Assembly (NCBI RefSeq): GCF_000092105.1
Contig: NC_014148.1
Coordinates: forward strand, 480,001-512,000
Length of the DNA stretch: 32,000 bases
Source of the DNA: Planctopirus limnophila DSM 3776
GTDB lineage: Bacteria > Planctomycetota > Planctomycetia > Planctomycetales > Planctomycetaceae
Direction: 5' to 3'
Shown here: positions 16,020-31,885 of the stretch, piece after piece
Numbering within the stretch: position 1 is the first letter of the stretch
Layout of the letters: each line of letters opens with the position of its first letter
Notes under the pieces: generated by a model
What the model saw: only the letters and a program-made list of their open reading frames with translations
Database searches by the model: none
What the model was told of the DNA's origin: nothing
Position numbers and translations under genes: made by a program

Positions 16020-16038
16020 TTGAATGGAGATTCGCCTA

Positions 16039-16072
16039 CCCCGGAGAACTTGCTTATGTCGGTTCTCCGGGG
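16039..16072 (+). other. Intercistronic stem-loop (11-bp perfect stem) 20 nt after the stop of 14763..16019
   Basis: CCCCGGAGAAC-ttgcttatgtcg-GTTCTCCGGGG, followed by ttcaggcgttcc, which is a weak T-tract. Confidence 0.5.
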
Positions 16073-16167
16073 TTCAGGCGTTCCTGATGATGGTAATTCT
16101 GCTCTCGTTTTCTCCCGTCATGCTGTTCAATTCGATGGTTTCCTCTTCTCGAAAAGAGTTTCCTGCC

Positions 16168-17019
16168 ATGCGATGCCTAGCCCCCCAGGCAAACTCGAAA
16201 GTTGTGGCTCTTGGATGGAAAACTATCCTTTGGATGCTCCTGTTGAGCTGTCTACCCATGGTGGCTTCCGCACAGCAGTATCCCTCGACTGACCGCCGCC
16301 ACTTCCCACTCAATCACATGACTTCGCCAGGCACCGCTGCCGCGTGGGCGGTCGCCAATGGCAAAGCTCATCCGGCCTACTTCCAGCCTGTGCGGATTAC
16401 GGTCCCCACAAAGGGCCGAGTTGACTTCTTCGACGGCTCGCCAGCTCGGCCCGTGTCGATGGCAGCGCCGGGGCAGGCGGCGCTCCTGGTTGGCCAGACA
16501 TACCGGGTGCGTTTAACCGCCCTGCCCGAGTTCCCCAATCAGGAATTTTATCCCACGATTGAACTCATCGATCGCCTGCATCCCCCTGAAGGATTGGCTG
16601 ATCGATTCCCTGTAGAAGTCCAGTTCAGCGAGGACGATTTCGAGTTTGCTGCCCAGGGCCGATTGGTGACGAAGGTGGTTTATCTGGAACAGCCCGATCG
16701 AATTCCACTCTCAGTTCTTGATGCAGATCTCCGTGTCACAGAAGTGCCTCCGCAACAGAACGCGCTGGCCGAAGCAGATCTTTTAGGACGACCAGTCGCC
16801 ATTGTCAGGCTGGGTGGACGCACACCCGATAGCCACAATCCGCTGGATCCAACCTTCTTTGGATTCTGCCCGCCAGTGCAACCTTCTCCCGCAACGGCAA
16901 CACCTGAAAACGGTCAACCGGCCAATCCCACTCCGATCCAAAATGAAACGCCACAGGCGCGTACTCGCCCAAGTGGCGTTCGAGCCTCGGCTTCAATTCA
17001 GCAAACGGGTGGTCGCTAA
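16168..17019 (+). CDS. Secreted hypothetical protein, paralog of 14763..16019
   Basis: Signal peptide MRCLAPQANSKVVALGWKTILWMLLLSCLPMVASA|QQ, taken from ATG 16168 (the ORF opens at 16024). Shared motifs are TYRVRLTALPE..FYPTIELI, LVTKVVYLEQPD and AIVRLGG. Confidence 0.65.
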   Translation: MRCLAPQANSKVVALGWKTILWMLLLSCLPMVASAQQYPSTDRRHFPLNHMTSPGTAAAWAVANGKAHPAYFQPVRITVPTKGRVDFFDGSPARPVSMAAPGQAALLVGQTYRVRLTALPEFPNQEFYPTIELIDRLHPPEGLADRFPVEVQFSEDDFEFAAQGRLVTKVVYLEQPDRIPLSVLDADLRVTEVPPQQNALAEADLLGRPVAIVRLGGRTPDSHNPLDPTFFGFCPPVQPSPATATPENGQPANPTPIQNETPQARTRPSGVRASASIQQTGGR

Positions 17020-17075
17020 TCCCAGAGCTGCTTTCGGTCTCATCCTCAGTTCGAGTTTTTACCCATTCTGGGTTC

Positions 17076-18494
17076 ATGATTGAGAGTGTCCCTATGACTC
17101 GGAAACTCCTCACAAGTGCGACTCGCCCACTATCGTGCGGGCTCCCTGCGATGCTCATCGATCACCTGAAGAGCCATCGTCTGCTGCCACGTCGTCTGAT
17201 TCTGGGTGGCCTGATGCTGGCAGCTGCCGGTTCGACAGGTTGTACCACTCAGCGGGCTGTCACAGCCATGCGGCAGATTTCTGAGCCTCCCGCCTATCTG
17301 ATCATCGTGAATGACGAAATCACGGTTCGAGGACAATCGCCCGACGATTCCGGCAACATGGCAGGTCGGGTCAAGCTAGGTTCGAAATCAGCGAATGGCC
17401 GACAGGTTCAAACCGTCAGTCATACTCCGGCTATCGAAGCACTTCCCGTGGGGATGAAGATCGAAGTTTGTCCTCCCGATCGACGAGTTGTCGCCGGTTG
17501 TCCTGATCCCAAAATCTGCCCACCACCGTTTGCACCTGGCTTTACCATGGCCGAGTGCTACCTGATGGAATGCAAAAAACGTTATCCCGACGAATACATT
17601 TGTGATGGTGGAGATCGCGGTCTGCCGGTGCATTACGACTCTGTGGGTATTCAAGGTCTTGAAACTGAAGACACTGTGGCTGAATTCGTCGATCACACAG
17701 GCAAAGAGCGAGTCAAGCCCTCAAGCCGCGTATGTGTGTATGCACCTCGATTTGCCGCCGTTCGTTCTGTCAGCGTCCCTGCCGTCGGTGAAGCGGTGAG
17801 CGAGCTGGCGAATGTTGCCGGCTCGACAGGCGATCGCAGTATGCGAGCTCAGACCAAAATCGATCAATCGGCCCAGCAGACTCCGACCGGTGGCTTGAGA
17901 ATGCGTTCGCGCTCCAGTGGTTTGGAATCAACCTCTGGCCAGGGAGATTTTGCTTCGATTACCCGGCTCGCCGCTCATGAAAAGCTGGTCAATCTTTTCC
18001 AGGACATTGGCTTTCTGCGAACAGGTTTGATGGAAGTGGATGACGTGGCTGCTATTCAGCAGGGGATGCAGGCTTCGATGGCCTGGAGCCGAGAGCAGTC
18101 GCCGATCATTGCTGCCAAACTCGATGTGCCGATTGAAGGCCGCAGTGATGTGCATGCTGCTGTGATCACCTTGATCGATGATGCCAAAAACAACGAACCC
18201 GGTGAACTTCGTGTGGTCAAGCTGGCCGACAAGCAGGATGCCGTCAGTGGTGATGTGATTGAATTCGTCATTCGCTTCGACAACCTTGGCCCTAATGCGG
18301 TCTCAGGAGTGCGGCTGATTGATAACCTCACGCCACGATTGTCATACATTCCTGACAGTGCTACCTGCACGTTGCCAGGCCAGCTGGTGGTCACACCCAA
18401 TGGCGTAGGGAGTGAGATCCTGATCTGGGAACTCGAAAACTCTCTCGAAGCCCGTAAAGGTGGCGTCATCACCTTCAAGGCCCGCGTCCGGTAA
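17076..18494 (+). CDS. Lipoprotein with a Cys-rich module and a C-terminal DUF11 (conserved repeat) domain
   Basis: Lipobox LMLAAAGSTGC|T. Six Cys lie in residues 132-176. The C-terminus SGDVIEFVIRFDNLGPNAVSGVRLIDNLTPRLSYIPDS...WELE...GGVITFKARV is a typical DUF11 pattern. Confidence 0.7.
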   Translation: MIESVPMTRKLLTSATRPLSCGLPAMLIDHLKSHRLLPRRLILGGLMLAAAGSTGCTTQRAVTAMRQISEPPAYLIIVNDEITVRGQSPDDSGNMAGRVKLGSKSANGRQVQTVSHTPAIEALPVGMKIEVCPPDRRVVAGCPDPKICPPPFAPGFTMAECYLMECKKRYPDEYICDGGDRGLPVHYDSVGIQGLETEDTVAEFVDHTGKERVKPSSRVCVYAPRFAAVRSVSVPAVGEAVSELANVAGSTGDRSMRAQTKIDQSAQQTPTGGLRMRSRSSGLESTSGQGDFASITRLAAHEKLVNLFQDIGFLRTGLMEVDDVAAIQQGMQASMAWSREQSPIIAAKLDVPIEGRSDVHAAVITLIDDAKNNEPGELRVVKLADKQDAVSGDVIEFVIRFDNLGPNAVSGVRLIDNLTPRLSYIPDSATCTLPGQLVVTPNGVGSEILIWELENSLEARKGGVITFKARVR

Positions 18495-18926: not shown

Positions 18927-21900
18927 CTACTTCTCCAGAACCTGACCTGCCTCGATAAACTTGCGGAAGTCGAACGTCCCCTGGCCGGCGTCATAGGCAG
19001 CTTCCAGTTTGGAACGATCGACCACAAACGCGCCGCGGAACTCAGGCTCGTACAAGTCGTTCAGTGGTGCTCCAATCCGGACGGCATTGCCATTCGCCGT
19101 ATCGTAAGTCGCCCGGAAGAACTTGCAGGTCAAAAACACCACAAACGTATTGCTTCGAGTCGTCCCATTCTGCGACATCTTCGCAATCAGACGTTCCCGG
19201 GTCATCGGATCGAGTGCGCCATTGCTATGGTCAGTATCTGAACCGACTTCGAAGAGTAGCCGTGTATTCTGATCCAATGGATCGACGCTGCGAATCCATG
19301 AAGGCAGTGCAGGATTCCCGGCTCCCACTGTCGGAGTGGCACTAAAGCTGCGGAATGGGCGACTTCCCGGCAAACCGGGTAATCCATACTGCTGGCCACT
19401 ATCTCCATACCATGGATCAGCTTCCGAGTAATCTCTGTTGAACAGAAACTCATTCCACCAGTTGAGACCATCGATCGTACTGAGTGGAGGTGCAGAAACA
19501 TTGGTGGTGAGATCGACATTCACCACGCGTTCGTCATCCAGCCATGCTGCCAGCACTTCGGGATGCCGGATCGTATTGGGATTCAGCTTGCCTGGTACTC
19601 GATTGATGGAGTTCATGGCGGTCTCATTGCTGAGATTTTTATTGACCCTTGAGGGGACTTCCAGAAGTTCGAGAACACGGTGCCAGCGGTTGTGGTTATT
19701 CCCCGCTGGAGGCGTGGTACTTACAGGAGACTGATACAACGGCGCCAGGAACTTGGCTCCCGCCGTTCGCGAATACTCGATGAAATCGATCGCTCCATCG
19801 TTGTTTGAATCGTATTGCTCTTCGAGGTTCTGCTGACCGGCGGCATAGCTCTTTCGTGTATCGACCAGTCGTAACGTCAAATGCTTCGGACCAAACAACG
19901 GGATCAAAAACAGCTCACCCATATTCGCCAGATCGCGGTCAAAATGCCTTTGCAGTGCTGTCCATGTCACCAGCGCACCAGGGTTGGCTGCTCCAATCGA
20001 GTTGACATAAGGATCGAGTGGCGCTGTTTCGGTACCATCAGGCGGAGTTGGTGGTGTGCCATCCGGATGTTGAGTCAGGCTGGCAGCAGTTGCGTCGAGT
20101 GGCTGGTTTCGCTCAAAGGACCGCAGCTTATTGAGTTCTGTATCAATATTCGGATAAGCCGTCGATGGTTGAAGATCGAACTCTCGCAATCCAGTCACTC
20201 GCAATCGATCGACTTCCACCCATTCGTTGTCAGTCGCTGCCGTCGCATCAGCGGGACGGGTTCGCCCCAGGTACTGTCGGCGGTACAAAATCACATCCAG
20301 TGGGTCGTTGGCATTGGTAATCATGCTGTCTTCGAGAAGCCGGATACCAGCGGTCACAGCTCCGTATTCGTTGGCATCTCCTGCCATGAGCCGGTGCGTG
20401 GTGCCGTTTGTTGATTCCCGCCTGACGACATCGAGATCAAGCACTCCGTTTCGAGGTGCAATCCAGGTTCGATTGATCGTGAAATCTGGTGTCCCGCTTG
20501 TCCATTCAAAATCGACCTTCATCACACTTTGCATATCGGTCGGCTGTGCAGAAGCGCCCACGTCAAAGCTCGTTCCGCCAATCGTATACCGGCCATTCGG
20601 AGCAATCGTCCCCAGTTGCATTGTGAGTGCTCTGGCTTTGGAAAGGTCGGGTAACGTCATAGCGATGCGAGGCTGGACGACAATCTGGTAGTCACCATTA
20701 GTAAAGTCAATGTTATCCGGACCGGTGTTTGCCAATTCGACATACATCAGATATTGATCAGTCGTATCATCCCACTGAGTGGCCTGATGATCGACAGGGA
20801 CCATTGAGGCGTCTTCAACTTGATTGGCTTTAATGGCCAGCACTTCGTTAATCGCCAGACGCTGCCGCTCAATCCCATAAACCTGAGCATAGGTTGAACT
20901 GCCAGAAACTGTCGCAGAAGTGGGCAGGTTGGCATCGTCGACGTTCCAGCCATCAGAAAGGTCGATGTCGTAGACAAAGCGGGTAATCACTTCATCGCGA
21001 TCCATGGCATCGACATAGTTGACGGCAAACTGCGCCATCTCCCGGAGTTGATCCGGCGAATAAAGTGCAGAGGCCGGCTGGGTGGCCGCATTGAGGTTGT
21101 CGGCTGCTCCACCAAACAAATAGAGCAGGACATAGACATCGCGAGCCAGTCGCTGTCGATCCAGCCGCGCTTGCCGCTCTTGAGTGCTTGTCGCGATATT
21201 CGCGCCGGCATTCACTTCATGCTGCACCAATGGGCGGACTGTCGGGCTGGCTGCTGTGCCATCAATCACACTGTTGAGTGGAATGCGGCGGTGGATGCGT
21301 GCTGTGTTGTTATCATTTTCGATGATCTCCAACCACTTCCGCACAGGGCCACGCAAGGGATCTGCTGCTGAATAGGGCGCCACAGCACCGAACTGGGGAG
21401 GAAACACAAATCGTCCACCACTGGCTGTGTATTCCCAGGCTCGACTGATGCTTCGTGGCCACGAGAACTGCTTACGATCCGAGCTCACTGTCGTCAGCTT
21501 CGTGCGAATATCATCGGCACGAGTGCTGTTGCCTGTATTGAGATTGAAAGGGGCCAGATCAGTCAGTCGGGTTGCAACATTATATTCCGTGGCTTTTGCC
21601 TGACGCATCTGCAGGACGGCACTATCAAAAGCATCGAACAGGCTGTCATTCAGATCGGGAGTGTCGCGATAGTAGGCGGTTTCGTAAGGATCATCACCCA
21701 ACGTAAAGACACCGGCCAAGCGAGGTGCATTCGTGGTATTCCATTTCACGAAGGAATTCGTGTCCTGCCCGACCATCCGGCTGAAGCGGAACTGGTTGTT
21801 GAAGAAATCCAGATTTTTCACGTTCGTTGATAAGACATAAGATCCAACACCCATGAAATCGAGCGGCCACGCAAATGTCGAATTCAGTACGTTCGCAGCG

Positions 21901-23726
21901 ACTGGATATGGCCACGAGGTTGGATAGCCTGTGCCACCATTGGCAGAATCATTGTTATCATCACTGTTCGTCAGTCCTGCCCTAGGGAGTACAGTTCCAG
22001 TACCGGTCGCAACGCTTTGCAGCAGCGATTGCTCTCCATGGCGACCTGGATAAAGTGTCTCTATAACTGAAGGGGCACTGAACTTTACCCTGCCTAAGAG
22101 GATCATCGCCAATTCCATATTCGAAGCTTCCTTCCAGGTATTGACGATCGATGTAATGGGTGGATTTGTCGTCGGCCCAGGGTAACTCGCAGGCTGTGCA
22201 CCGAACATCTGAGAGTAAGGTGACCAATCGACACCACCTGCCACATCAGCAGTTCCCGGGCGGGAGTTGAAGACCCAGGACGGGTTCACTTCGGCAGGCC
22301 CTAAGCCTTGATTGGATCGCGAAAAGAATTCGAGCGAAGCCGCTGCACCGAGAACTCCTGCAGGTACTGCTCCCGTGGCACCATTGGGATTCGTCCCCAG
22401 TGCAGGCACTCCCAATGCCTGATTCAAAGCGAGATTTCCATGGGCATTCAGGTTGATCAGACTGTCCAGATCATAGATCGTGGCGGAAAAGAGGGGCACG
22501 AATGGGTTGCCATTAGCATCTTCCTGGACAGGATAATCGAGGTCGAGCCAGATCCCTTCTGGAATACCGTCGAGGTCATTATCAATGTCATATTCATAAG
22601 TGGCAGCATCGGTGAGGAACGTACCGGAAGAAGTCGCGATTCGTTCCCAGATGCCCTGACGACCGGTCTTAAATACTGGGACAGATGTCGTGTAGCTTTC
22701 ATCCATCGGCTGCATGGGGAACCCCTGCGTCATCGGCGGATTCAGTGATGGACTCGCCGCCTCAGCATTTGTCAGGAAGCGACTGACGGCAGAAGAACCC
22801 TGCACCTGGACTCGATGATCAGGGTGCGGCCTCAAGGAGCGGCTACCCCATCCGTTATAGTCATACCAGCGCTGACCAGCAGGATCTGTCGCCAATAATG
22901 GATCGTTCGTACCAGGCCTTCGCATGTACTGAGGTCTGTGATAAGAAGGCACGATGACCGGGACAGACAATGCTGGATTGGTCGGGTGTGGTATATATCC
23001 CCGATAAGCCAGGAATGCGGTATTGATATCAGGGGCTGTGTAATCTCCACCACGGCGGGGAAGGAGCAGTGGATCGGCACTTCGCCAGTTATTGGCAGCC
23101 GGTGAGACGTTCAGTGACAGCGGGTTGTATTCGGTTTGCCCGGCAGTGATGGTCGAAACGGTCGCTCCGGTGGAAACATTGATGCGGTCTCCAGTTCCTG
23201 CGAGGAGGTTAAAATTACTGACACGGACAGGAGCCGCCACATCGGCAATCAGATAGTTATCAATGGCCAGAGTGCCGGCATTCCACGACATACGCATCGA
23301 TCCGCCATCAAACGGATGCCGGTCGGGATACTGGTAAACGACACGACCTGTCCCGGCTGAATCAACGCGTTGCACATTCCCCATGGCGTTGGTCACCATC
23401 GAATGAGTGCTCGACCATAACGCACTGCTGCGATACTCGGGCCGGGTGCCAACGACGATCTGTTCCAAAGCGAAGTCGAATAGAACTTCGCCAGTCAGTC
23501 CCAGTTCCTGGGGAGCTTTAGCCGCTTCCGAAAAATATTCGGCATTACTTTGCTCCTGCCGGGCGAAGGTGAAAAAGATCACCCCCAGGATCGAGAGCAA
23601 TCCCAGCAGCACAAGAACGATCAGCAATGTCGATCCGCGGCGAGGATGTGCGATGGTTGCTGGCTTTCGATCTTTGCCAAGCTGAACAACCTGCTGAGCC
23701 GATTTTGCATGAATCATGTTTTTCAT
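18927..23726 (-). CDS. Giant (about 1599 aa) GspK-like minor pseudopilin
   Basis: ORF extends to 23762. The best start is ATG 23726, with AGGAGA at 23733-23738. RRG|STLLIVLVLLGLLSILGVIFF is a pilin-type helix without Glu+5, which is the GspK hallmark. IYDLDSLINLNAHGN (22428-22475) and RVPGKLNPNTIRHPEVLAAWL (19542-19601) resemble T2SSK-family motifs. It is the last gene in the F-G-H-I-J-K order. Confidence 0.75.
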   Translation of the reverse strand: MKNMIHAKSAQQVVQLGKDRKPATIAHPRRGSTLLIVLVLLGLLSILGVIFFTFARQEQSNAEYFSEAAKAPQELGLTGEVLFDFALEQIVVGTRPEYRSSALWSSTHSMVTNAMGNVQRVDSAGTGRVVYQYPDRHPFDGGSMRMSWNAGTLAIDNYLIADVAAPVRVSNFNLLAGTGDRINVSTGATVSTITAGQTEYNPLSLNVSPAANNWRSADPLLLPRRGGDYTAPDINTAFLAYRGYIPHPTNPALSVPVIVPSYHRPQYMRRPGTNDPLLATDPAGQRWYDYNGWGSRSLRPHPDHRVQVQGSSAVSRFLTNAEAASPSLNPPMTQGFPMQPMDESYTTSVPVFKTGRQGIWERIATSSGTFLTDAATYEYDIDNDLDGIPEGIWLDLDYPVQEDANGNPFVPLFSATIYDLDSLINLNAHGNLALNQALGVPALGTNPNGATGAVPAGVLGAAASLEFFSRSNQGLGPAEVNPSWVFNSRPGTADVAGGVDWSPYSQMFGAQPASYPGPTTNPPITSIVNTWKEASNMELAMILLGRVKFSAPSVIETLYPGRHGEQSLLQSVATGTGTVLPRAGLTNSDDNNDSANGGTGYPTSWPYPVAANVLNSTFAWPLDFMGVGSYVLSTNVKNLDFFNNQFRFSRMVGQDTNSFVKWNTTNAPRLAGVFTLGDDPYETAYYRDTPDLNDSLFDAFDSAVLQMRQAKATEYNVATRLTDLAPFNLNTGNSTRADDIRTKLTTVSSDRKQFSWPRSISRAWEYTASGGRFVFPPQFGAVAPYSAADPLRGPVRKWLEIIENDNNTARIHRRIPLNSVIDGTAASPTVRPLVQHEVNAGANIATSTQERQARLDRQRLARDVYVLLYLFGGAADNLNAATQPASALYSPDQLREMAQFAVNYVDAMDRDEVITRFVYDIDLSDGWNVDDANLPTSATVSGSSTYAQVYGIERQRLAINEVLAIKANQVEDASMVPVDHQATQWDDTTDQYLMYVELANTGPDNIDFTNGDYQIVVQPRIAMTLPDLSKARALTMQLGTIAPNGRYTIGGTSFDVGASAQPTDMQSVMKVDFEWTSGTPDFTINRTWIAPRNGVLDLDVVRRESTNGTTHRLMAGDANEYGAVTAGIRLLEDSMITNANDPLDVILYRRQYLGRTRPADATAATDNEWVEVDRLRVTGLREFDLQPSTAYPNIDTELNKLRSFERNQPLDATAASLTQHPDGTPPTPPDGTETAPLDPYVNSIGAANPGALVTWTALQRHFDRDLANMGELFLIPLFGPKHLTLRLVDTRKSYAAGQQNLEEQYDSNNDGAIDFIEYSRTAGAKFLAPLYQSPVSTTPPAGNNHNRWHRVLELLEVPSRVNKNLSNETAMNSINRVPGKLNPNTIRHPEVLAAWLDDERVVNVDLTTNVSAPPLSTIDGLNWWNEFLFNRDYSEADPWYGDSGQQYGLPGLPGSRPFRSFSATPTVGAGNPALPSWIRSVDPLDQNTRLLFEVGSDTDHSNGALDPMTRERLIAKMSQNGTTRSNTFVVFLTCKFFRATYDTANGNAVRIGAPLNDLYEPEFRGAFVVDRSKLEAAYDAGQGTFDFRKFIEAGQVLEK

Positions 23727-23950
23727 AATGTTCTCTCCTGCCAGAATTGGCAGCGGCATCAATCAAGATGCCCATCGACGGTGCTCGAACACTTCGTTCA
23801 CGAGTTGCTTCGGCCCGCAATCTCGAATGGTATCGATCAATATTTCTGCTAGATATTGTTGATCAAGCCAACCCCAGTTGCGTGCACTCGATATTTGTTA
23901 ACGAGATTCGAATAGCACTGCAGGTCGCGGATATCTGAATTTTTTTATGG

Positions 23951-25651
23951 TTAAGGAGTCAGGTCACATTGCATGGTGACTGTTCGTAGTTGCTGGGATG
24001 TCGGGTCTAAAAATCGAACCGTGATCTGTATTAAGCGAATTGGGCGACGGTTATCGACAGGAGTCCATTCGACCAATCCATCATTGATCGGAGTTCCATA
24101 GACGATGGGTAGTGTCAGTGGAATAGCGGCTCCAGCGGCATTGTTCGTCCCGGCACTGGCTCCTGAGCGAACGAAGAAGACAGGATCGCCGGGAATGCTG
24201 GAGACACCCCCGGACAGTGCAGGCAATACAGCGCCTGCCGTCGTTCCCGGAGTAAATCGCGGCAATTCGAAGGCGGACGCTGTCGCAGCCGCAATGTAGC
24301 GTCTGGGAAGCAGGGGAGGATTTTCAGCCGGATCTGACGTGATGGTCGCCAGTCGAACATCCTTTGCCCAGGTATCAAAAACATTGTTTCCACTTGGTCC
24401 ATCAGGCCCAAAATCAATATTCAGGCGACGATCCGGATTTCCGGTGACTGCAGGATTGGTGCTATAGAGCACACTTCCTGGACCGCCGATATCAACAAAG
24501 GCTCCTAAACCTCCATTGGCAAAGTCATCCCAGACTTTCACGTCGAATGAAACCACATTCGCCAATAATAGATCTTCACCGCGCCGACTGCCATTCGCGG
24601 AATTGTGCTGGAGTGGATCCACAACTCCCGTGGCGGCATCAACCGTCAGGCCCGCCGTGGCCTGATTCATGGGGCTCGGCGTTGCTGTAAATGGATATTG
24701 AAAAGCGACATTCGAGGTTTCTTCCATCGTGTAGCGACCAAAAAACACACCGGATAGAAACTCACGCGGTTTACCGGCATCAGCCGTTCCATCGGCGAAT
24801 TCGAAACCAAAGCGGCTGGTTGGAAGTTGCAGATCAGCCAGAGTATTAAATCTGACCCCATTGATAAACGGCGGTGGCATGGTCTGGTTGAAGGTTCGAG
24901 AACTGATTGGGCGTGCCGAAAAATCAAAGTCCTTCCAGAATGTCGAAGTAGCAGATGGTGTATATCTGGTGGTGGCTCCTGATGTGGAATCGAACAGCGT
25001 GTTCGTGGTATTGCCGTCTTCATGAGGCTCAATTTCGGCAGTTGAATCGGCGGGCTGACGAACCAGCATGACACGTCGATAAAGAGCCCCTGGCCGACCG
25101 GTGGTGCCGCGCCGCATAAACAGCGAAATCTCGGCTGTCGAACTGAGTGACGAGAGGTTACCCAGGTCGCCATCATCATAATCGGGTTGATTCAGACTGT
25201 TGCCCACCTGCAGCGCACGCCCGGAGTAGCTGTCCGTGTCGGCTAAAGAGTTAATCGTCGCAGTGATCTTGCCCGTGAACTCCAGCACATCATCAGTATC
25301 ATCGAACGGGTTGTTTTCCGAGATATAGAAGTAGCCGAGCATATCGCTCTCTTCTGTATTCACGGTATCTGTATATCCCGTGGGCCGGGCAGCCCAGGGC
25401 CAGACATAGCGATAGGTGCGGTTATTGAGGTCTTTGGTGATGATCGTCTGGATCGATCGCGCCCGCTGATCGTTCTCCATGATGCCGCGCTGGGTTGAGA
25501 CTGTCCCTGCAGCGATCTGAAAAACCTGCGCAAAGAGCGTCATCATCAACAGGACAAGTGCGACCGAAACCAGCATTTCGACCAGTGTAAAACCGGCGGA
25601 ATGCCCCTTTCGATGGCCTTGTAGTCTTGGTTGTTGAGTTAAAGAGTTCAT
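23951..25651 (-). CDS. GspJ/PilW-like pseudopilin, 566 aa
   Basis: Class III signal ...GHSAG|FTLVEMLVSVALVLLMMTLFAQVF with Glu+5. The start ATG directly abuts the upstream stop (TAA-ATG at 25649-25654). Confidence 0.7.
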   Translation of the reverse strand: MNSLTQQPRLQGHRKGHSAGFTLVEMLVSVALVLLMMTLFAQVFQIAAGTVSTQRGIMENDQRARSIQTIITKDLNNRTYRYVWPWAARPTGYTDTVNTEESDMLGYFYISENNPFDDTDDVLEFTGKITATINSLADTDSYSGRALQVGNSLNQPDYDDGDLGNLSSLSSTAEISLFMRRGTTGRPGALYRRVMLVRQPADSTAEIEPHEDGNTTNTLFDSTSGATTRYTPSATSTFWKDFDFSARPISSRTFNQTMPPPFINGVRFNTLADLQLPTSRFGFEFADGTADAGKPREFLSGVFFGRYTMEETSNVAFQYPFTATPSPMNQATAGLTVDAATGVVDPLQHNSANGSRRGEDLLLANVVSFDVKVWDDFANGGLGAFVDIGGPGSVLYSTNPAVTGNPDRRLNIDFGPDGPSGNNVFDTWAKDVRLATITSDPAENPPLLPRRYIAAATASAFELPRFTPGTTAGAVLPALSGGVSSIPGDPVFFVRSGASAGTNNAAGAAIPLTLPIVYGTPINDGLVEWTPVDNRRPIRLIQITVRFLDPTSQQLRTVTMQCDLTP

Positions 25652-27058
25652 TTATTGCACATCTCGAATAGAGACTGGATTGAGCGGAAAGACATCCACC
25701 ACATTGGGCATGATGACTGCCGATCCATCATTCGCATTTTCAAACACGCGGCCCTCAATACGTATGCGGGCATAGCTGGTCCCTGAGCCTGTCGAAAGAC
25801 CAGTGGGGTAAAAAGAAGCGGCTGGAAACTCAGCAGGCTTGGCTGCCGCCAGACTGGTGAAACTTTCTTCTAATTGGGAGATGCGATACCAGCGCATGCG
25901 GCCGGCATCGAGGATATAGCCACCCTTCTTCCACTTGGGAGGATCGTTCTCATCGTATTTGACAACGATGACCGAAGATGCTGCGCCGGAGGTATCGACA
26001 TACGAGGCGAAGAACGCTCCCTGAATCCGTTCGTCATTGATGCCAAACTGGCGGCGGAAGAAGACCACCGCATCCGAATTGCGTGTTCCATCGGCCTTAA
26101 CGCGCGTTGTCGTCAGCCAGGTGTATCGCAACTCCTGTGTTTCGATACGAATCTTGACTGGTGAAAAGCCCAGTGCACCGACGAACGACAGGCTCGTCGA
26201 TGTCGGCGCGGGTGTCCCGCTGATTGGACGAACTTCGACGCGACGCATATCCGCATCGAACATCACCATCCGGCTGGAAGTAACGGCCGGATTGACGATC
26301 TGACTCAAGCCTGTCTGGTCAGCAAAGGTGATCGTAAAGGTGCCGTCTCCGTTATCAACGGGAGCAGCAAAATCGACCGATTCCACCTGCAGGAGCCAGC
26401 TGTCGGGCAATGTTGCGATCTGGCTTGCCTGCAATAACGTCGTGGCACCGCCCGTAAAACGCGGCACGACAGTGAGCGCGTTGGTTCCATCATTTCCGAA
26501 AAAGCGACCAGCATTGGGTGCCAGGACATCCGCCATGCGGAACGAACCCAGGGGATCCACCACATAACCATTGGTAATGGAAACTGGCTGCCAGATCGTC
26601 CCATCAGCCGCTGTAATGGGCCCGGTACTGGCCCAGACAGGTTCCGTATTTCCCAGGACACCACTGGTGCTGCAACCAAAGACCAGGCGTGGAAACTGTG
26701 AACGAGTGATGGGGTTACTGGGCAATATAAATGTGGGGCGCGCGGGATTGTCGGTGATGGATGTCGCCGTCAGTCCCGGTTGCCAGAGTGCAGCGCCGGT
26801 GTTGACCTGACTAAGTGCATTCCGCATTCCGCGAACATTGTAACTCAGAATGGCCGAGTTGGTCATATTGGTCGCAGCGACCGACTTCAGCACGCTGATC
26901 GGGAAGAGGGAGGCCAGACCGACAATACCAATCCCCATAATCATCAGCGAGATGAGAACTTCACTCAGCGTCACACCTGCACGAGCATTTGAGCCGTGAG
27001 TTTTGTTTGGCCGATAGTTAGTTCTGGTAGACCGAGGGAGCGGAAGTAATGTTTTCAT
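25652..27058 (-). CDS. GspI/PilV-like pseudopilin, 468 aa
   Basis: ...NARAG|VTLSEVLISLMIMGIGIVGLASLF with Glu+5, similar to PilV G|FSLIEVLVAL..IGLLGL. ATGA overlap with the upstream gene at 27055-27058. Confidence 0.65.
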   Translation of the reverse strand: MKTLLPLPRSTRTNYRPNKTHGSNARAGVTLSEVLISLMIMGIGIVGLASLFPISVLKSVAATNMTNSAILSYNVRGMRNALSQVNTGAALWQPGLTATSITDNPARPTFILPSNPITRSQFPRLVFGCSTSGVLGNTEPVWASTGPITAADGTIWQPVSITNGYVVDPLGSFRMADVLAPNAGRFFGNDGTNALTVVPRFTGGATTLLQASQIATLPDSWLLQVESVDFAAPVDNGDGTFTITFADQTGLSQIVNPAVTSSRMVMFDADMRRVEVRPISGTPAPTSTSLSFVGALGFSPVKIRIETQELRYTWLTTTRVKADGTRNSDAVVFFRRQFGINDERIQGAFFASYVDTSGAASSVIVVKYDENDPPKWKKGGYILDAGRMRWYRISQLEESFTSLAAAKPAEFPAASFYPTGLSTGSGTSYARIRIEGRVFENANDGSAVIMPNVVDVFPLNPVSIRDVQ

Positions 27059-28137
27059 TTACCGGCTCCTTCACCAGTTTCGGCATACAGCAAGCGATCA
27101 CTCCCTGCTCCGTATCCCAATTCATGCACAGAAACTGCTCCCGTGCGAGTTGCCACACTGACAAAGTACTTATCGCCTCGGTTTTCGCTGTCTTCCAGTT
27201 CGGCAGCAGAGCCGCTTTCCCAAGCCAGTCGATCCAGATCGGCATCTTTTTGTGTTCCAACGTAGAGATGTAGTAAACCCGCTGTGGCGGCCTGACCAAT
27301 GACGGTGCCACTGGGCGAGAACATGATGTCAATCTGGTTGCTATAGCGAGGGGGATTGACTGAGCCATCTCGCCAGGCGGTCGGTAGAATATTTCCCCTG
27401 GCAGAAGCTGTCGCGAGATTGTCGATATTCCGGGAGCATCGATCGAGATGCACGACCACACCTGCGGGCAGAAAGACGGGCTTCTGACCCACAAACGGTA
27501 CCGGATCGAGTTGCAGGTCATAGGTTGTGACACCATCCCGGCCTGCAGCGAAGGCCTCAAGTGTTCCTGAAGGTGTTTCTGCTGGTAAACGGAAGGGAGT
27601 TGTGAGCCGTAAACGAATCTGGCCGGCACTGGTATCCAAGGTTGCTCGATACCACGTCCCCTGGCTTCCTTTAGGAATCCGAATGCGAATGTCATTAGGA
27701 AATCGCTGGCGAGAAATGAGATTGGACCAGTTCGTTCCTGCCGCTTCAGCCACCACTCGAACATCGGTCGAAGTCAGGTTCGATTCATCCCGTCGCAATT
27801 CAATCGTTCCATCCGACCATAGCTCACCAGGTTGGATATACACCATACTTGTAATCGTGCGGTCATTATTCGGACTCTTGATGAAACGGACACCCACGGG
27901 TGCTTTAGCATAAATGGCTCGGTCACGCGCACCATTGAGGAACGACTGTATCTGCCTGGCACCTGCGCGGACTTTGTCACCATCGAGGCTCAGTCGCACC
28001 ATCGTCGCAGTGATGACCAGGAGCGTGACCAGAATCGAGATCACAACCAGCAGTTCGATCAGCGTAAAGCCGCGTCGCTCAGAGATTCTCTGAACCGGCT
28101 GGCGACCGATCGGCAATATTACGTATTTAGCAAACAT
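27055..28137 (-). CDS. GspH/FimT-like pseudopilin, about 360 aa
   Basis: ...ERRG|FTLIELLVVISILVTLLVI, followed by AGARQIQSFLNGARDRAIYAKAPVGVRF, which is the GspH/FimT-type helix pattern. ORF extends to TTG 28146. ATG 28137 has GGGAGA 9 nt upstream. Confidence 0.65.
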   Translation of the reverse strand: MFAKYVILPIGRQPVQRISERRGFTLIELLVVISILVTLLVITATMVRLSLDGDKVRAGARQIQSFLNGARDRAIYAKAPVGVRFIKSPNNDRTITSMVYIQPGELWSDGTIELRRDESNLTSTDVRVVAEAAGTNWSNLISRQRFPNDIRIRIPKGSQGTWYRATLDTSAGQIRLRLTTPFRLPAETPSGTLEAFAAGRDGVTTYDLQLDPVPFVGQKPVFLPAGVVVHLDRCSRNIDNLATASARGNILPTAWRDGSVNPPRYSNQIDIMFSPSGTVIGQAATAGLLHLYVGTQKDADLDRLAWESGSAAELEDSENRGDKYFVSVATRTGAVSVHELGYGAGSDRLLYAETGEGAGK

Positions 28138-28161: not shown

Positions 28162-29274
28162 TCAGCGACGGTTGTTGAAGTTCGAAATATCATCCAGTAA
28201 ATCATCGCGAGATGCCGGCAAGCCAAGTCGCCCTGTGGTGGTATGCGGCTCCTGCAACCCCAGCACTTTTCCCGGCCCTGCGGAAACGATGAGAGGGGTA
28301 AAGAACGTATCGAGCTGGTGATAGTTATTACGAAAAGCCGCATCGCTTTGACCCAGCCCGAGCAGCATCGATTGAATCCGGCCGTAGCCATCATCAGGAT
28401 CGACACCCAAGGGATCGAGATTGGTGCCGGTGGATGCTGGCAGTTCAGGAATCAGTACAAGGCCATACTGTCGATCAATTGTGCCACTCGGATAAGTGAG
28501 TGGTGGGTTTGAATTGCTTGCTGTTGCCAGAGTCGCTGTGGTGCCACTCGTCGTATTGCGGACCAGAGCCGTCGGCCAGCGATAGAACCGCAATGGTTCG
28601 CCCCAGGCATCAATAAACTCCAGGTGACCATCGCCGTCGGTATCCCGGACTTCGTTACTCGAAAAATTATCGGGACTGACGGGTGGTAATCCAAAAACCT
28701 GGGCTTGGGTGAGGGCGTAATAAAGTAGTGCCGATGATTCGGTTTCGACCTTATGATTGGCACTGATATAGGCTGTTGATGTCAACAGGGGATGACTCGA
28801 TGGCAACTCGCTGAATGACTGAGGAAACGTCTGTTTCAGCAGCATCTTCCGGGCAAGGACTTTCATCGCCGGGATATAGTTATTGGTGTTCGCATTACTG
28901 ATCCCCAGATCAGCCCGCACCTGCCGGAAGTATCTCTGGTTGTTTGTCCCCTGCTCCAGGGCTTTATCAACAGCGCGGTTAAACGATTCCAACCGCTGCT
29001 GAAGAAGGCCATCGATTTTAAGAATTGTCGCCTGTGTCGCTCGCTCACGCGCTGTAAGAATCGTATTCCCAAAAACAGCCGCAAATATCGAAATCATCAG
29101 CAGGATCAGGCCGATCACAACCAGCAATTCAATGACGGTAAAACCTGCCCGGCGATGTTGCGAACCGCGAGTACGAGGCGGGAAGCTGGAATTCGACGAA
29201 ATTCTGTTCGCGCAACGGGCAATGGCGCCAGTTGGTGAACTACGAAAATCGAATTGGTGAAACGGATGGATCAT
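28162..29274 (-). CDS. Second GspG-like pseudopilin, about 370 aa
   Basis: ...HRRAG|FTVIELLVVIGLILLMISIF. Also DTDGDGHLEFIDAWGEPLRFY (the DAWG.P motif of G-type pseudopilins), SAGPGK, and a C-terminal LDDISNF resembling the GspG DDIxNW end. ORF extends to TTG 29316, and the first ATG is at 29274. Confidence 0.7.
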   Translation of the reverse strand: MIHPFHQFDFRSSPTGAIARCANRISSNSSFPPRTRGSQHRRAGFTVIELLVVIGLILLMISIFAAVFGNTILTARERATQATILKIDGLLQQRLESFNRAVDKALEQGTNNQRYFRQVRADLGISNANTNNYIPAMKVLARKMLLKQTFPQSFSELPSSHPLLTSTAYISANHKVETESSALLYYALTQAQVFGLPPVSPDNFSSNEVRDTDGDGHLEFIDAWGEPLRFYRWPTALVRNTTSGTTATLATASNSNPPLTYPSGTIDRQYGLVLIPELPASTGTNLDPLGVDPDDGYGRIQSMLLGLGQSDAAFRNNYHQLDTFFTPLIVSAGPGKVLGLQEPHTTTGRLGLPASRDDLLDDISNFNNRR

Positions 29275-29363: not shown

Positions 29364-30422
29364 CTAGCGACCACCCAGTGTTCCCGAATAAAAGTTGGTA
29401 ATGTTATCGAATTCCGCCTCGCGGTCTGCCACACTCACAGCCCCGGTAATTCCCGGTGCCCAGACAGCAGAAGGAATATCGGTGGCAGCGTAACCTGGCA
29501 ATGGTGTAGCGACTTCAGGTTGGAACGGCCCACCCGGCCCGAAAGTCTGGTCATACCCGGGAGAGATGATCTGGAAAGATTTAGCATTCCAGGCTGACTT
29601 ATTGGCTTTATCCTGTGCATAGGGGAGGATAGGGTAGTTAGCTGAGTTTCCCTGGGGGCCGTAAGTTAAAATGCCATACTTACCATTCGTGGTGGCTGCG
29701 TAAAAATAAGGAGTACCCTGCCCTGAGATGGGATCGACAATTTCTGGCAGATTGTCGCCATCAAGATCGGTATAGCGACTTGCAGGATGTTCGTAGTAAG
29801 GAGTGGTGCGCGGGCCAGTTCCACGTCGGAAGGGGGCAGCCGGGTCTTTGGAAAAACCAATGGCCCGCCATAACGTGGTGGAACCTTCAACTGTCTTTTC
29901 GTGTAAACCACCCAGGAAGAAGGCCAGGCATTCCGCATTCGAGAGCACAATCGCACTCCCACCAGCCGTCCCATCGCCATCGATATCCGGAGCACCAGCG
30001 GTATAGGCAAAGTCAAACTGTGGCCAGAACTGACGGATAATGGCTTTGGACTCGCGAATCTCTTGAGCCGTGTACAAATTCGGTGCCACCCCACCATCCG
30101 CCGGAGTGGCCCAGAGTGTCGCTGTTTGTGGAATGACAATGCGGCTGGGGGGATGGATTCCATACTCTTTCTCAAAGGCGACACAGGCCGATTCGATTGC
30201 ACTGATTTCTGTACGCACCTGAGCAATGGTTGCTCTGCGGCGGGCGCCGTTAATGGCAGGCAAGAGGAGAGCGATCAGTATCGAGATCACCACAATGACA
30301 GCCAGCAATTCAATCAGCGTGAAGCCCGCACGAGGCCCGGAGGAGCCACCGTCTGACTGTGTACTGGAATCGCATCCGCGCCCGGCAAAACGAAGGCTGT
30401 AGGGGTTGGTTTTCAGGAACAT
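29364..30422 (-). CDS. gspG: GspG-like major pseudopilin, 352 aa
   Basis: GPRAG|FTLIELLAVIVVISILIALLLPAINGARRRATIAQVRTEISAIESACVAFEKEYG is colinear with the GspG N-terminal helix. The C-terminus has ISPGYDQTFGPGG and FDNITNF. GGAG lies 6 nt before the ATG. It is the first gene after gspF. Confidence 0.75.
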   Translation of the reverse strand: MFLKTNPYSLRFAGRGCDSSTQSDGGSSGPRAGFTLIELLAVIVVISILIALLLPAINGARRRATIAQVRTEISAIESACVAFEKEYGIHPPSRIVIPQTATLWATPADGGVAPNLYTAQEIRESKAIIRQFWPQFDFAYTAGAPDIDGDGTAGGSAIVLSNAECLAFFLGGLHEKTVEGSTTLWRAIGFSKDPAAPFRRGTGPRTTPYYEHPASRYTDLDGDNLPEIVDPISGQGTPYFYAATTNGKYGILTYGPQGNSANYPILPYAQDKANKSAWNAKSFQIISPGYDQTFGPGGPFQPEVATPLPGYAATDIPSAVWAPGITGAVSVADREAEFDNITNFYSGTLGGR

Positions 30423-30625: not shown

Positions 30626-31885
30626 TCAGGACAGGTCGTTCAGCAACTGAATCAGAGGCATGAAGAGGGCAATCACAATGAAGCCCACAATCAAGCCCAG
30701 CACCACGACCATGAGTGGTTCGAGCATGTTGATCAGACCTTCGACCAGCACGCCCACTTCTTCGTCGTAGACATCGGCGACTTTATAGAGCATGTTGTCG
30801 AGTGCTCCCGTTTCTTCACCGACGTCGACCATATTGACGACGATCTCGTCGTAAATTTTTGTTTCTCGGAGAGGAACAGCCATCGATTCCCCTTCGCGAA
30901 TAGCCGCATTGACGTGCTCGAAAGCCTTCACGAACACGGCGTTTCCAGCGGTATCACGGGTAATCGACAATGCTTCCAGAATCGGTACACCTGAGGCCAC
31001 GAGTGTTCCCAGCGTGCGGCACGTTCTCGCGATAATCGACTTTTTCAAGATCAGCCCCAGCATGGGAATGCGGAGTGAAATCCAGTCGACAACAAAGGCC
31101 CCGGTTTTGTTCTTTTTGATAATCTTGATCAGCAGCCAGATCGAAATCGGAATGACGGGCCCCAGGTACCAGTAGTTCACGACCGCACTACTGGTGCCGA
31201 TCAAGACTTCCGTCATCATGGGCAGTTTCGTACCGAAGTCGTCGAAGATCTTTTTGAACTTCGGGATAATCCAGTACATAATGAAGCCCACGATCAACGT
31301 GGCCACAGTGATCACCGCTGCCGGGTAGATCATGGCGCCTTGAACTTTACGCTTCAGGCTTTGCTGCCGTTCTTTGAATTCTGCGAGTCGCTGGAGAATC
31401 ACTTCCAACGCACCGCCTGCTTCACCGGCCCTCACCATGTTCACGTAGAGATTATCAAAAGCTTTGGGCTGCTTACCCATGGCTTCCGATAGAGTGCTAC
31501 CGGATTCAATATCTTCGATGACGCCCATCAAGGAGTTCTTAAGGGCACCAGGCTTGGCCTGCACTTCCAGAATTCGCAGACTTCGAAGAATGGGTAGACC
31601 AGCATCCTGAAGTGTCGACAATTGCCGTGTAAAGGTGCAAAGCTGCTTGGCACCTACCCCACCAATCGTGAACGTTCCCTTCTTGCGGGCGTTGGGTTTC
31701 TTCTTCCCATCCTTGGCTGGGCTTGTGTCTTTTTTCTTCTTGGTGCGACCTTTTTCAGAGATCTTGGTGACATAGAAGCCACGCTCGCGGATCTTCGATT
31801 GAGCCTCCTGTTCGGTGGCGGCTTCAATCGTATCCTTGACTTCCATGCCCTTGTTGTCCATCGCTTCGTACATGAAGGTGGGCAT
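30626..31885 (-). CDS. gspF: Type II secretion / type IV pilus platform protein GspF/PilC
   Basis: Two T2SSF repeats are present (FTRQLSTLQDAGLPILRSL...YVNMVRAGEAGGALE and CRTLGTLVASGVPILEAL...MVDVGEETGALD), with 3 TM helices. AAGGAA SD. A Lys-rich linker lies at 31676-31753. Confidence 0.92.
   Translation of the reverse strand: MPTFMYEAMDNKGMEVKDTIEAATEQEAQSKIRERGFYVTKISEKGRTKKKKDTSPAKDGKKKPNARKKGTFTIGGVGAKQLCTFTRQLSTLQDAGLPILRSLRILEVQAKPGALKNSLMGVIEDIESGSTLSEAMGKQPKAFDNLYVNMVRAGEAGGALEVILQRLAEFKERQQSLKRKVQGAMIYPAAVITVATLIVGFIMYWIIPKFKKIFDDFGTKLPMMTEVLIGTSSAVVNYWYLGPVIPISIWLLIKIIKKNKTGAFVVDWISLRIPMLGLILKKSIIARTCRTLGTLVASGVPILEALSITRDTAGNAVFVKAFEHVNAAIREGESMAVPLRETKIYDEIVVNMVDVGEETGALDNMLYKVADVYDEEVGVLVEGLINMLEPLMVVVLGLIVGFIVIALFMPLIQLLNDLS

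Follow-up and report, generated by a model that had tools for sequence, protein, structure and literature searches.

An unusually large candidate K-type tip minor pilin encoded in a pilin operon of Planctopirus limnophila DSM 3776

Described K-type tip proteins and the Planctopirus candidate

K-type minor pilins initiate and cap every type IV filament. Assembly is described as being licensed once the sheet of the K-type protein has been completed by a terminal strand, which is supplied either by K itself or by a large tip adhesin (PMC13533445). In GspK and CpaL this strand is given in cis (PMC13533445), whereas PilY1 and MshQ are separate, non-pilin proteins that donate it in trans; in the CpaL/TadG, PilX+PilY1 and MshP+MshQ systems, it is the extreme C-terminal strand of the large tip protein that completes the K-type sheet (PMC13533445). 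ComZ, from the competence pilus of Thermus thermophilus, is a GspK-like pilin with a 380-aa insertion, a single beta-solenoid situated between the penultimate and last strands, and it has been argued to fit at the filament tip only, acting there as a receptor (PMC6561018). The modular pilins (S. sanguinis PilB, CofB and TcpB) consist of a pilin carrier plus a bulky extra, displayed at the tip (PMC8179133). In these proteins a linker joins the pilin module to the additional module behind it, which in most cases is a domain that can be recognised.

The window analysed here is a stretch of 32,000 nt from the genome of P. limnophila DSM 3776 (NC_014148.1, positions 480,001 to 512,000). On its minus strand, at 18927..23726 (stop codon included), the open reading frame and its translation specify a protein of 1599 aa (175 kDa, pI 5.0). 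The data presented below make it probable that this protein is a tip minor pilin of the GspK/PilX class, enlarged by two long conserved insertions and providing its own beta-strand at the very C-terminal end. The GspK alpha-domain, ComZ and CpaL are known precedents. A literature search found no paper on the giant-pilin family.

The closest comparison is with GspK/XcpX (PF21687 and PF03934; PDB 3CI0, XcpVWX). Like the giant gene, gspK stands last, after H-, I- and J-like genes. Common to the two proteins is a (Q/R)RG|hydrophobic start without Glu5. The conserved GspK series, in which an NLN-bearing strand, a helix, INxNT and an S..F strand succeed one another, has putative colinear equivalents in the giant pilin. 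A non-pilin insertion breaks the GspK fold after the NLN strand (PMC6561018, PMC13533445), as is proposed for the giant pilin, and the cis C-terminal strand of GspK/XcpX (PMC13533445) has a proposed counterpart in the modelled C-terminus of the giant pilin. The differences are equally apparent. The giant pilin is five times as long (1599 aa versus about 325 aa), and in place of the single GspK alpha-domain, about 110 aa in size, it carries two insertions, one of about 290 aa and one of about 900 aa; unlike GspK/XcpX, it lies under every HMM threshold and is unmatched by Foldseek, and its locus, unlike GspK systems, contains PilT, with GspC/L/M not seen.

Unlike ComZ, as that protein has been described, the giant pilin has its main insert after the NLN strand, and this insert comprises about 900 aa of mixed alpha/beta structure; no solenoid was detected in the AlphaFold2 (AF2) model of residues 400-1599, either directly or by Foldseek. 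CpaL has a pilin-like domain, a large middle and the terminal strand on one chain (PMC13533445), the arrangement proposed here, but is only about 600 aa in length, and the giant pilin, unlike the CpaL and PilY1 systems, lacks vWA, Tad and PilY1 beta-propeller domains. Modular pilins differ in that the extra sequence of the giant pilin would be located within the fold, matches no domain and is conserved as a whole. Neither of the features by which modular pilins are recognised, N_methyl (IPR012902) and a recognisable appended domain, was found in it.

The giant gene and its family

The frame is uninterrupted. It is open on the minus strand over 18927..23762, beginning with TTG, and the ATG at 23726 (MKNMIHAK...), which is preceded by the Shine-Dalgarno-like sequence GGAGAG, yields 1599 aa and a stop codon. 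The homologue search returned 134 homologues of the giant protein, almost all of 1550-2050 aa and with query coverage of 98-100%, the nearest being a protein of 1600 aa with 97% identity. Their sources are the isolates Planctopirus ephydatiae, Gimesia panareensis and Calycomorphotria hydatis, as well as numerous independent metagenomes. At least 141 species genomes, nearly all from Planctomycetaceae, contain the C-terminal module, and the best 150 of 3029 matches to this module in the representative library are all close family. Conservation is even over the entire length of the protein in the family conservation profile, and ORFs of ~1600 aa are present as counterparts in about 45 fetched loci.

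These results bear on the possibility that several genes have been fused through an artefact of assembly or annotation, a concern raised in the first-pass annotation of this DNA. The unusual length and the absence of known domains are all that would suggest it, and set against them are the uninterrupted frame, the near-full-coverage homologues from isolates and independent metagenomes (more than 130 at full length), the synteny and ~1600-aa equivalents in about 45 loci and the end-to-end conservation. The probability of such an artefact is practically nil, and that reading was dropped as refuted by the homologues, the conservation profile and the fetched loci. The giant protein is the product of a real gene, and its family is conserved in Planctomycetaceae. 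No internal repeats were found in it by self-BLAST, in agreement with what had been noted by eye. Scans of the window for Rfam families, tRNAs, promoters and terminators gave nothing above chance.

The pilin operon and its machinery

The operon reads, in order, PilB-like, PilT, PilB/MshE-like, PilC/GspF, five prepilins and, last, the giant gene. The three ATPase genes lie upstream, beyond the window. Within it, and all on the minus strand, the PilC/GspF platform protein (30626..31885; PF00482 at 1.8e-63) is followed by a prepilin of 352 aa with a GspG/major-pilin-like N-terminus (29364..30422; G|FTLIE) and one of 370 aa (28162..29274; G|FTVIE). There follow an H/FimU-like prepilin of 360 aa (27055..28137; G|FTLIE), which has a 4-nt overlap with the next gene, an I/PilV-like prepilin of 468 aa (25652..27058; G|VTLSE) and, directly upstream of the giant gene, a J-like prepilin of 566 aa (23951..25651; G|FTLVE), the last two with N_methyl. 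A gap of 224 nt separates these abutting H-I-J genes from the giant gene. Every pilin of the operon exceeds the usual size by a factor of two to four, and the five oversized prepilins all begin G|(F/V)T(L/V)xE, i.e. Glu5 is present. The order of prepilins and then giant gene is kept in Schlesneria, in Gimesia and in about 45 other loci. The giant gene thus occupies the position of a GspK/PilX-class gene, last in an H-I-J-K minor-pilin string.

Assignments of the individual neighbours were obtained at various levels of support. Among the E. coli pseudopilins, GspJ was the best match of the 566-aa pilin family (hhalign, Prob 86.5, 59 columns), and Pfam T2SSJ was matched in 2 of 22 members with an E value no better than 0.18. 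For the 468-aa pilin, an N-terminal match to PilV had an E value of 6.8e-6, under the cutoff, and GspI was marginally best by hhalign. Besides the weak T2SSJ match, Pfam searches with the families of the I-like and J-like neighbours gave only N_methyl.

The nature of the machinery is relevant to the possibility that the giant protein is the tip subunit of a short T2SS-type pseudopilus in the periplasm, i.e. a secretion piston rather than a surface pilus, with a bulky cap that would serve to load substrate or to gate the outer-membrane channel. It is apparent that some of the similarities are in this direction: the best NCBIfam match of the platform protein is GspF, GspE is nearly best for one ATPase, the N-termini of neighbouring pilins are GspG- and GspH-like, and the signature motifs are those of GspK. 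The matches of the ATPases and platform protein to GspE, GspF and PilB, however, are all under the equivalog cutoffs; neither GspC/L/M nor secretin genes were seen in the window or in the 10 kb upstream; an MshE-type c-di-GMP domain is present in one assembly ATPase; and the same gene string encodes a PilT-family ATPase above its curated cutoff (439 bits versus 319). A secretion piston is, on these grounds, very unlikely. Neither secretin nor PilMNOP genes were seen in the DNA examined. The first-pass annotation had spoken of a GspK-like protein and a tip pseudopilin; since the locus includes a PilT retraction ATPase, 'type IV pilus PilX/PilK-like' is a better label than the T2SS term 'GspK pseudopilin'.

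Core segments, insertions and the proposed tip

The N-terminus of the giant protein reads ...HPRRG31|S32TLLIVLVLLGLLSILGVIFFTF. A hydrophilic leader (residues 1-31; 23634..23726, minus strand) ends in the conserved R29-R30-G31, a predicted prepilin-peptidase site, after which the leader would be cleaved, as judged from the sequence. R29 is present in 36 of 40 alignment rows (the rest being gaps or one Q) and G31 in 37 of 40 (the rest being gaps), and R-R-G-S-T-L-L ahead of the hydrophobic stretch is nearly invariant in the family. The alpha1 helix (STLLIVLVLL...) and the helix following it (residues 32-115; 23382..23633, minus strand) align with the N-terminal part of GspK, and AF2 placed helices at residues 32-70 and 79-91. 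The fifth residue from the Gly is Ile (I36); this position is I or V in 39 of 39 aligned family members and Glu in none. The pilin-type helix lacking Glu at +5 that had been noted earlier is thus borne out, and a class III signal-like N-terminus of this kind is a GspK/PilX-class feature. Taken by itself, the helix is generic, matching GspG, GspH, GspJ and GspK about equally, and Pfam N_methyl (IPR012902) is unmatched in the giant protein.

Three motifs reported in the first-pass annotation are all present, at positions about 10 residues removed from those given there: DLDSLINLN (residues 419-427), KLNPNTIRHPEVLAAWL (residues 1380-1396) and TTRSNTFVVFLTC (residues 1522-1534). The first two are separated by 953 aa, in line with the earlier estimate of about 950. 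L423, N1382, N1384, R1387, D1397 and T1522 are invariant in the family, and conservation reaches 90% or more at D419, N427, S1525 and F1528. The first motif lies in a segment with a strand and D-L-D-x-L-I-N-L-N (residues 408-431; 22434..22505, minus strand), the putative counterpart of the GspK 'FNLN' segment, in which N105 and N107 are conserved in the GspK alignment; AF2 predicted a strand at 408-419 (pLDDT 84-91). The second lies in a helical segment (residues 1340-1432; 19431..19709, minus strand) containing NRWxRLLExxEVP and R-V-P-G-K-x-N-x-N-T-x-R (residues 1376-1397; 19536-19601, minus strand), and the sequence comparisons given below support its equivalence to the GspK alpha-domain helix and 'INxNT' segment. 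The third lies in a predicted C-terminal beta-sheet of four strands (residues 1520-1599; 18930..19169, minus strand), which AF2 placed at 1527-1542, 1548-1554, 1563-1570 and 1591-1598 with pLDDT 75-91. The last of these strands (nt 18933-18956, minus strand) is at the extreme C-terminus; no more than 1-6 residues come after it in 40 homologues.

In a full-length hhalign comparison with GspK only the N-terminal helix was aligned (Prob 15.6), and windowed comparisons were therefore employed, in which the family profile was scanned with sliding windows against an alignment of 37 GspK sequences. The five best windows are colinear with GspK and coincide with the N-terminal helix and the regions of the motifs: residues 28-51 versus GspK 4-27 (P 7e-5), 412-428 versus 92-108 (P 3.5e-3), 1345-1377 versus 124-160 (P 0.012), 1373-1395 versus 208-229 (P 1e-3) and 1519-1535 versus 280-296 (P 0.11), the last aligning TTRSNxF with the S286..F289 strand. 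As single-segment values these P values, from 7e-5 to 0.11, are weak, and are under database-wide significance. Most of the remaining windows gave P 0.1-0.96; three further window groups had P 0.05-0.07, and one sub-threshold window was out of order (1260-1285 versus GspK 176-201, P 0.05). When the insertions were deleted in silico, at construct boundaries chosen by the authors, hhalign to GspK gave Prob 89% and E 2.3e-6. The core without the N-terminal helix scored 33.4, as compared with 14.2 +/- 2.0 (maximum 20.3) for 40 column shuffles (z about 9). This colinear similarity, at the level of sequence profiles, is supportive of kinship with GspK.

The profile and Foldseek searches suggested in the first-pass annotation gave no significant placement with GspK. 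No Pfam or NCBIfam family matched the giant protein at E<=0.01, including T2SSK (PF21687, PF03934) and the NCBIfam models of GspK and of minor pilins, and none of 28 family members matched T2SSK at E<=1; true GspK proteins all have PF21687, and most have PF03934. Besides LTD, discussed below, sub-threshold matches in the 28 members were PilX_N (E 0.11) and Verru_Chthon_A (E 0.045). Searches of PDB sequences with the single protein, the family profile and the insertion-deleted profile gave chance matches only (serpin, FliL, intein), with no GspK/XcpX. Foldseek with the AF2 models of residues 400-1599 and 1-600 found no GspK or pilin fold, and nothing at E<=0.001, in the PDB; the model of 400-1599 likewise gave nothing at E<=0.001 in BFVD. 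The missing GspK match may be due to the putative core being split between two models and broken by 900 aa.

That no HMM or fold search finds a pilin or GspK domain, and that N_methyl is unmatched, would also be expected if the giant protein were a non-pilin, signal-anchored or Sec-exported accessory factor of tip or base, like PilY1/PilC or MshQ, with the helix a mere anchor or signal and the GspK-like motifs convergent or due to chance. PilY1 and MshQ exemplify a known arrangement in which a large protein is encoded right after I-J-K genes (PMC13533445), and the 224-nt gap would be consistent with it. The operon would then, however, be left without a K-type pilin, all five upstream pilins having Glu5, and the near-invariant R-R-G-S-T-L-L is expected of a processing site rather than of a plain anchor. 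The colinear GspK matches, moreover, extend well past the helix, with the z of about 9 against shuffles, and the PilY1 beta-propeller domain (Neisseria_PilC) is absent at E<=1 in 28 members. A non-pilin factor is accordingly considered unlikely. An apparent beta-propeller in residues 1-600, tried as a PilY1-like sign, was rejected (Foldseek E about 1, model pLDDT 62). Pfam Tad, as a sign of TadG/CpaL, was found in just one of the 28 members (E 0.94), with no vWA.

Insertion 1 (residues 116-405, about 290 aa; 22512..23381, minus strand) is conserved and was modelled at low to moderate AF2 confidence, the model of the N-terminal 600 residues being poor (pLDDT 62.5); Foldseek with that model gave no match for it. 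At its end is an acidic loop, DxDNDxDGxxEG (residues 380-391; nt 22554-22589, minus strand), in which D380, D382, D384, D386 and E390 are 88-98% conserved. Insertion 2 (residues 445-1339, about 900 aa; 19710..22394, minus strand) is of mixed alpha/beta structure, is conserved throughout and has no significant match to a known family or structure in Pfam, NCBIfam or Foldseek. It contains a beta-sandwich of AF2 strands (residues about 957-1185; 20172..20858, minus strand) with weak lamin-tail/Ig-like similarity: Pfam LTD was matched in 5 of 28 family members, the best E value being 8e-4 and that of the window protein 0.088, and the best Foldseek match was the lamin Ig domain 1ufg (E 0.022). Apart from this hint, the earlier statement that the intervening sequence could be assigned to no domain holds, with nothing from Pfam or NCBIfam at E<=0.01.

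In the model of residues 400-1599 (pTM 0.81), insertion 2 and the C-terminal module form a single compact body. The protein had initially been described as a tip pseudopilin with acquired passenger modules. The operon, the N-terminus, the colinear GspK matches and the C-terminal sheet back a K-type tip pilin; the notion of acquired, swappable modules fits poorly, since the ~1200 extra residues are conserved along their full length in the family and are modelled as one body. A conceptual merger of GspK with a PilY1-like adhesin had also been put forward, and with no PilY1/PilC homology in the 28 members this is to be read as functional analogy only.

As a K-type pilin, the giant protein would lose its short leader after Gly31, and its Glu5-less helix would top the helix bundle, where there is no overlying subunit for Glu5 to pair with. 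It would join the I-like pilin of 468 aa and the J-like pilin of 566 aa in a complex priming polymerisation on the PilC/PilB platform, and would then remain at the filament tip. Its pilin-like sheet may be closed in cis by its own extreme C-terminal strand, cf. GspK and CpaL. The two insertions, with the acidic Ca-type loop and the Ig-like sandwich, may be threaded into the fold to give a large distal cap, which would replace a separate PilY1/PilC tip protein and probably contacts a ligand or surface. The giant pilin would in this way occupy the place of PilX plus PilY1, and an adhesin role may be envisaged for it. The PilT ATPase of the locus suggests filament retraction.

If this is correct, the giant family represents an extreme single-chain case, a K-type pilin plus about 1200 extra conserved residues, and an entire clade of tip pilins is overlooked by current domain libraries. 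The insertions (about 1200 aa without detectable PDB relatives) would be a target for structure determination. Planctopirus produces thick (12 nm), pili-like, dextran-binding fibres from large crateriform structures (Boedeker et al. 2017, PMC5394234). The operon, with its 175-kDa K-type cap and PilT motor, might encode these fibres, the tip priming them and carrying a polysaccharide-catching or pore-docking surface, and retraction reeling macromolecules into the enlarged periplasm; this proposal is improbable as it stands, and if true would mean a type IV filament serving as a feeding device. The surface fibres of Planctomycetaceae are unexplained, and the giant gene provides a concrete candidate that is amenable to genetics.

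One further similarity deserves mention. The Verru_Chthon cassette A-D of Verrucomicrobia (TIGR02600, TIGR02598, TIGR02599, TIGR02596) has prepilin-type proteins together with one very large protein A. A literature search found no paper on these cassettes. Verru_Chthon_A (TIGR02600) had no match in the window protein and matched one of 28 family members, at the E value of 0.045 given above. The neighbouring pilins match C and D N-terminally, far under the cutoff, and kinship of the giant family with the cassette is offered as a lead.

Operon context and size of the pilins

The giant gene (1599 codons; window positions 18927-23726, minus strand) is the last of a minus-strand series comprising a PilC/GspF gene, five prepilin genes (352, 370, 360, 468 and 566 aa, in that order) and the giant gene itself. 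Upstream, in the part of the locus that extends past the window end on the contig of the same strain (L003, 4342-9848), three ATPase genes lie in a row: a PilB/GspE-like gene, a PilT-family gene (439 bits; cutoff 319) and another PilB-like gene, whose product has a c-di-GMP-binding domain of the MshE type at its N-terminus. Neither a secretin gene nor PilMNOP genes were found within 10 kb in this ATPase region. The presence in the locus of PilT and of the MshE-type ATPase, together with the absence of GspC/L/M from the DNA examined, makes it improbable that the giant protein is the tip of a T2SS pseudopilus.

All five upstream prepilins carry G↓(F/V)T(L/V)xE (the arrow marks the predicted cleavage site). 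At the N-terminus the third resembles GspH, the fourth PilV and the fifth a J-type pilin; of the E. coli pseudopilins, GspJ is the best fit to the family profile of the 566-aa prepilin. The genes of these three (H-, I- and J-like) follow one another without a gap (spacings of -4 and 0 nt). An untranslated gap of 224 nt (23727-23950) precedes the giant gene; no Rfam family and no convincing promoter or terminator was detected in it, and it is far shorter in Gimesia and apparently also in Schlesneria. Prepilins followed by an ORF of ~1600 aa starting RRG↓STLL were also observed in Schlesneria, Gimesia and ~45 other loci.

The operon prepilins (23951-30422, minus strand) are all 2-4 times the usual size (E. 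coli GspG-J are ~125-200 aa), and apart from the N-terminal methylation motif no domain was matched in any of the five. Their counterparts in other Planctomycetaceae are equally large or larger, the J-like protein reaching ~880 aa. For the J-like (23951-25651) and H-like (27055-28146) proteins, the best NCBIfam N-terminal matches are Verru_Chthon cassette proteins C and D of Verrucomicrobia; these matches (E values of 5e-7 and 1e-10) fall far under the cutoff and hint at similar oversized-pilin cassettes across the PVC superphylum.

Conservation of the giant protein

The reading frame is open without interruption from a TTG at 23762 to 18927 (minus strand). An ATG at 23726, preceded by the Shine-Dalgarno-like GGAGAG, yields the 1599-aa product (175 kDa, pI 5.0, a single Cys). 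The ORF and its translation agree exactly with the coordinates of the first-pass annotation, and self-BLAST detected no internal repeats, as had been judged by eye. The motifs noted there are all present, but its residue numbers were ~10 too high: DLDSLINLN occupies residues 419-427, KLNPNTIRHPEVLAAWL 1380-1396 and TTRSNTFVVFLTC 1522-1534.

Among 5.8 billion proteins searched, 134 homologues were recovered; almost all are 1550-2050 aa long with query coverage of 98-100%, and none has a functional name. Isolate sources are Planctopirus ephydatiae (97% identity), Gimesia panareensis and Calycomorphotria hydatis, the others deriving from many metagenomes. In a 40-sequence alignment conservation spans the whole protein, including the middle previously left unassigned, and only short loops vary. 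An assembly artefact, raised earlier as an alternative, is excluded by these full-length homologues in isolates and metagenomes and by the conservation throughout.

At least 141 species-level genomes, almost exclusively of Planctomycetaceae, contain a narrow peptide pattern derived from the C-terminal module. A profile of the C-terminal 260 residues (1340-1599; window 18930-19709) matched 3029 representative clusters at E<=1e-3, of which only 371 reach E<=1e-30, indicating that this module is common to a much wider superfamily; the best 150 of the 3029 matches all belong to the close family. Taken together with the comparisons below, the data describe a conserved family of Planctomycetaceae that lacks annotation and whose members are likely to be giant K-type (GspK/PilX-class) tip pilins.

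Comparison with GspK

The N-terminus reads ...RRG31↓STLLIVLVLLGLL, with R29 and G31 nearly invariant. All 39 members compared have I or V at +5, bearing out the earlier description of a pilin helix without Glu5. Lack of Glu5 in the product of the final pilin gene is the classical GspK/PilX signature. The N-terminal helix by itself matches GspG, GspH, GspJ and GspK equally.

Database searches gave no family placement: neither Pfam T2SSK nor NCBIfam nor PDB sequences matched the giant protein, 28 members or the family profiles. Foldseek likewise found no pilin among matches to AF2 models of residues 400-1599 (pLDDT 74.5, pTM 0.81) and 1-600 (pLDDT 62.5).

A coherent signal did emerge from profile-profile comparison, in which 100-residue windows of the family alignment were slid over an alignment of 37 GspK sequences (E. 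coli K-12 GspK and relatives). The five best windows are colinear: residues 28-51 with GspK 4-27 (P 7e-5), 412-428 with 92-108, the FNLN strand (P 3.5e-3), 1345-1377 with 124-160 (P 0.012), 1373-1395 with 208-229, the INxNT segment (P 1e-3), and 1519-1535 with 280-296, the S..F strand (P 0.11). The remaining windows mostly gave P 0.1-0.96, with three further groups at 0.05-0.07; window 1260-1285 (P 0.05) breaks the order and was taken as noise. When both intervening blocks were deleted in silico, a single colinear GspK alignment resulted (Prob 89%, E 2.3e-6). Without its N-terminal helix the core scored 33.4, against 14.2 +/- 2.0 (maximum 20.3) for column shuffles.

The earlier interpretation is partly supported: a GspK-like tip pilin is favoured by the missing Glu5, the last gene position and the colinear segments, to which the AF2 model adds a long strand and a C-terminal sheet (below), while the HMM and Foldseek searches gave it nothing. 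That the protein is instead a non-pilin accessory, its helix a mere signal anchor, appears unlikely, as the operon would then be without any Glu5-less pilin and the colinear GspK signal would be left unexplained.

Anatomy, proposed function and neighbouring genes

On the K-type reading, a leader (residues 1-31) is followed by alpha1 and the next helix (32-115), both aligning with the beginning of GspK. At the end of insertion 1 (116-405) is a strongly conserved acidic loop, D380-x-D-N-D-x-D-G-x-x-E390, which may bind Ca2+; Ca sites are present in GspK/XcpX (PMC6211770). Next come a strand and the NLN motif (408-431; AF2 confidently predicts a long strand at 408-419) and insertion 2 (445-1339), of mixed alpha/beta character, with long helices at 848-871 and 891-908 and a beta-sandwich (~957-1185) of weak lamin-tail/Ig-like similarity. 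A putative helical remnant of the GspK alpha-domain (1340-1432) contains the invariant N1382-x-N1384-T-x-R1387; a conserved stretch, mostly coil in the model (1433-1519), leads to the closing sheet (1520-1599). This sheet has four predicted strands, the last (1591-1598) stopping one residue short of the stop; across 40 homologues only 1-6 residues follow it.

With its pTM of 0.81 across 1200 residues, the model suggests a single compact body made up of insertion 2 and the C-terminal module rather than beads on a string. Such a body and the even conservation argue against recent acquisition of the passenger modules envisaged earlier.

An EF-hand-like loop, DSNNDGAIDFIE (1306-1317; window 19776-19811), presumably underlies the UniRef name 'EF-hand domain-containing protein' of a homologue. 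Its surroundings are poorly conserved (alignment occupancy 0.66 for block 1301-1320) and of low AF2 confidence; in contrast to the conserved acidic loop (380-391), it probably does not belong to the core.

For a K-type tip minor pilin of this kind we infer, from processing onward, a working like that of GspK/PilX. The protein would be processed after Gly31, nucleate the filament with the I- and J-like pilins on the PilC/PilB platform and remain at the tip. Its C-terminal strand would complete its own sheet in cis, which fits the licensing-strand scheme of Ellison et al. 2026, where the strand is supplied in cis by GspK or CpaL, or in trans by PilY1, PilC or MshQ (PMC13533445). A search for a PilY1/PilC domain in the protein was negative, so the proposed merger of GspK with PilY1 does not hold at the domain level; the ~1200 extra residues could plausibly serve as PilY1 does elsewhere, as a distal cap meeting a ligand or surface. 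PilT in the locus implies that the filament would be retracted.

The closest architectures are ComZ of Thermus, a pilin resembling GspK whose sheet is interrupted by a 380-aa beta-solenoid (PMC6561018), and CpaL/TadG, in which pilin-like domain, large middle region and terminal strand form a single chain (PMC13533445). The giant protein is set apart by its size (5 times that of GspK), its two insertion sites, the unrecognisable folds of the inserts and a locus whose pilins are all oversized. As it fails the T2SSK, PilY1, TadG and Verru_Chthon A HMMs, it is placed with the K-type tip pilins outside Pfam T2SSK.

P. limnophila bears 12-nm pili-like, dextran-binding fibres on large crateriform structures, as well as 6-nm stalk fibres (PMC5394234), and the literature searched assigns no genes to either. 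With its oversized pilins, giant cap and retraction motor, the operon is a natural, if speculative, candidate.

Elsewhere in the window, a DUF1559 (SBP_bac_10) protein (7705-8721, minus strand) has at its start several hydrophobic stretches that apparently span the membrane and is without the prepilin-type N-terminus that usually accompanies this domain in planctomycetes. Downstream of the operon lie three convergent genes (14763-18494, plus strand; 418, ~283-331 and 472 aa). A 653-aa minus-strand ORF (13281-15242) that overlaps the first is probably over-extended. No known domain was matched in the first two, and the third has a DUF11/CLIPPER repeat; all three also occur in P. ephydatiae.
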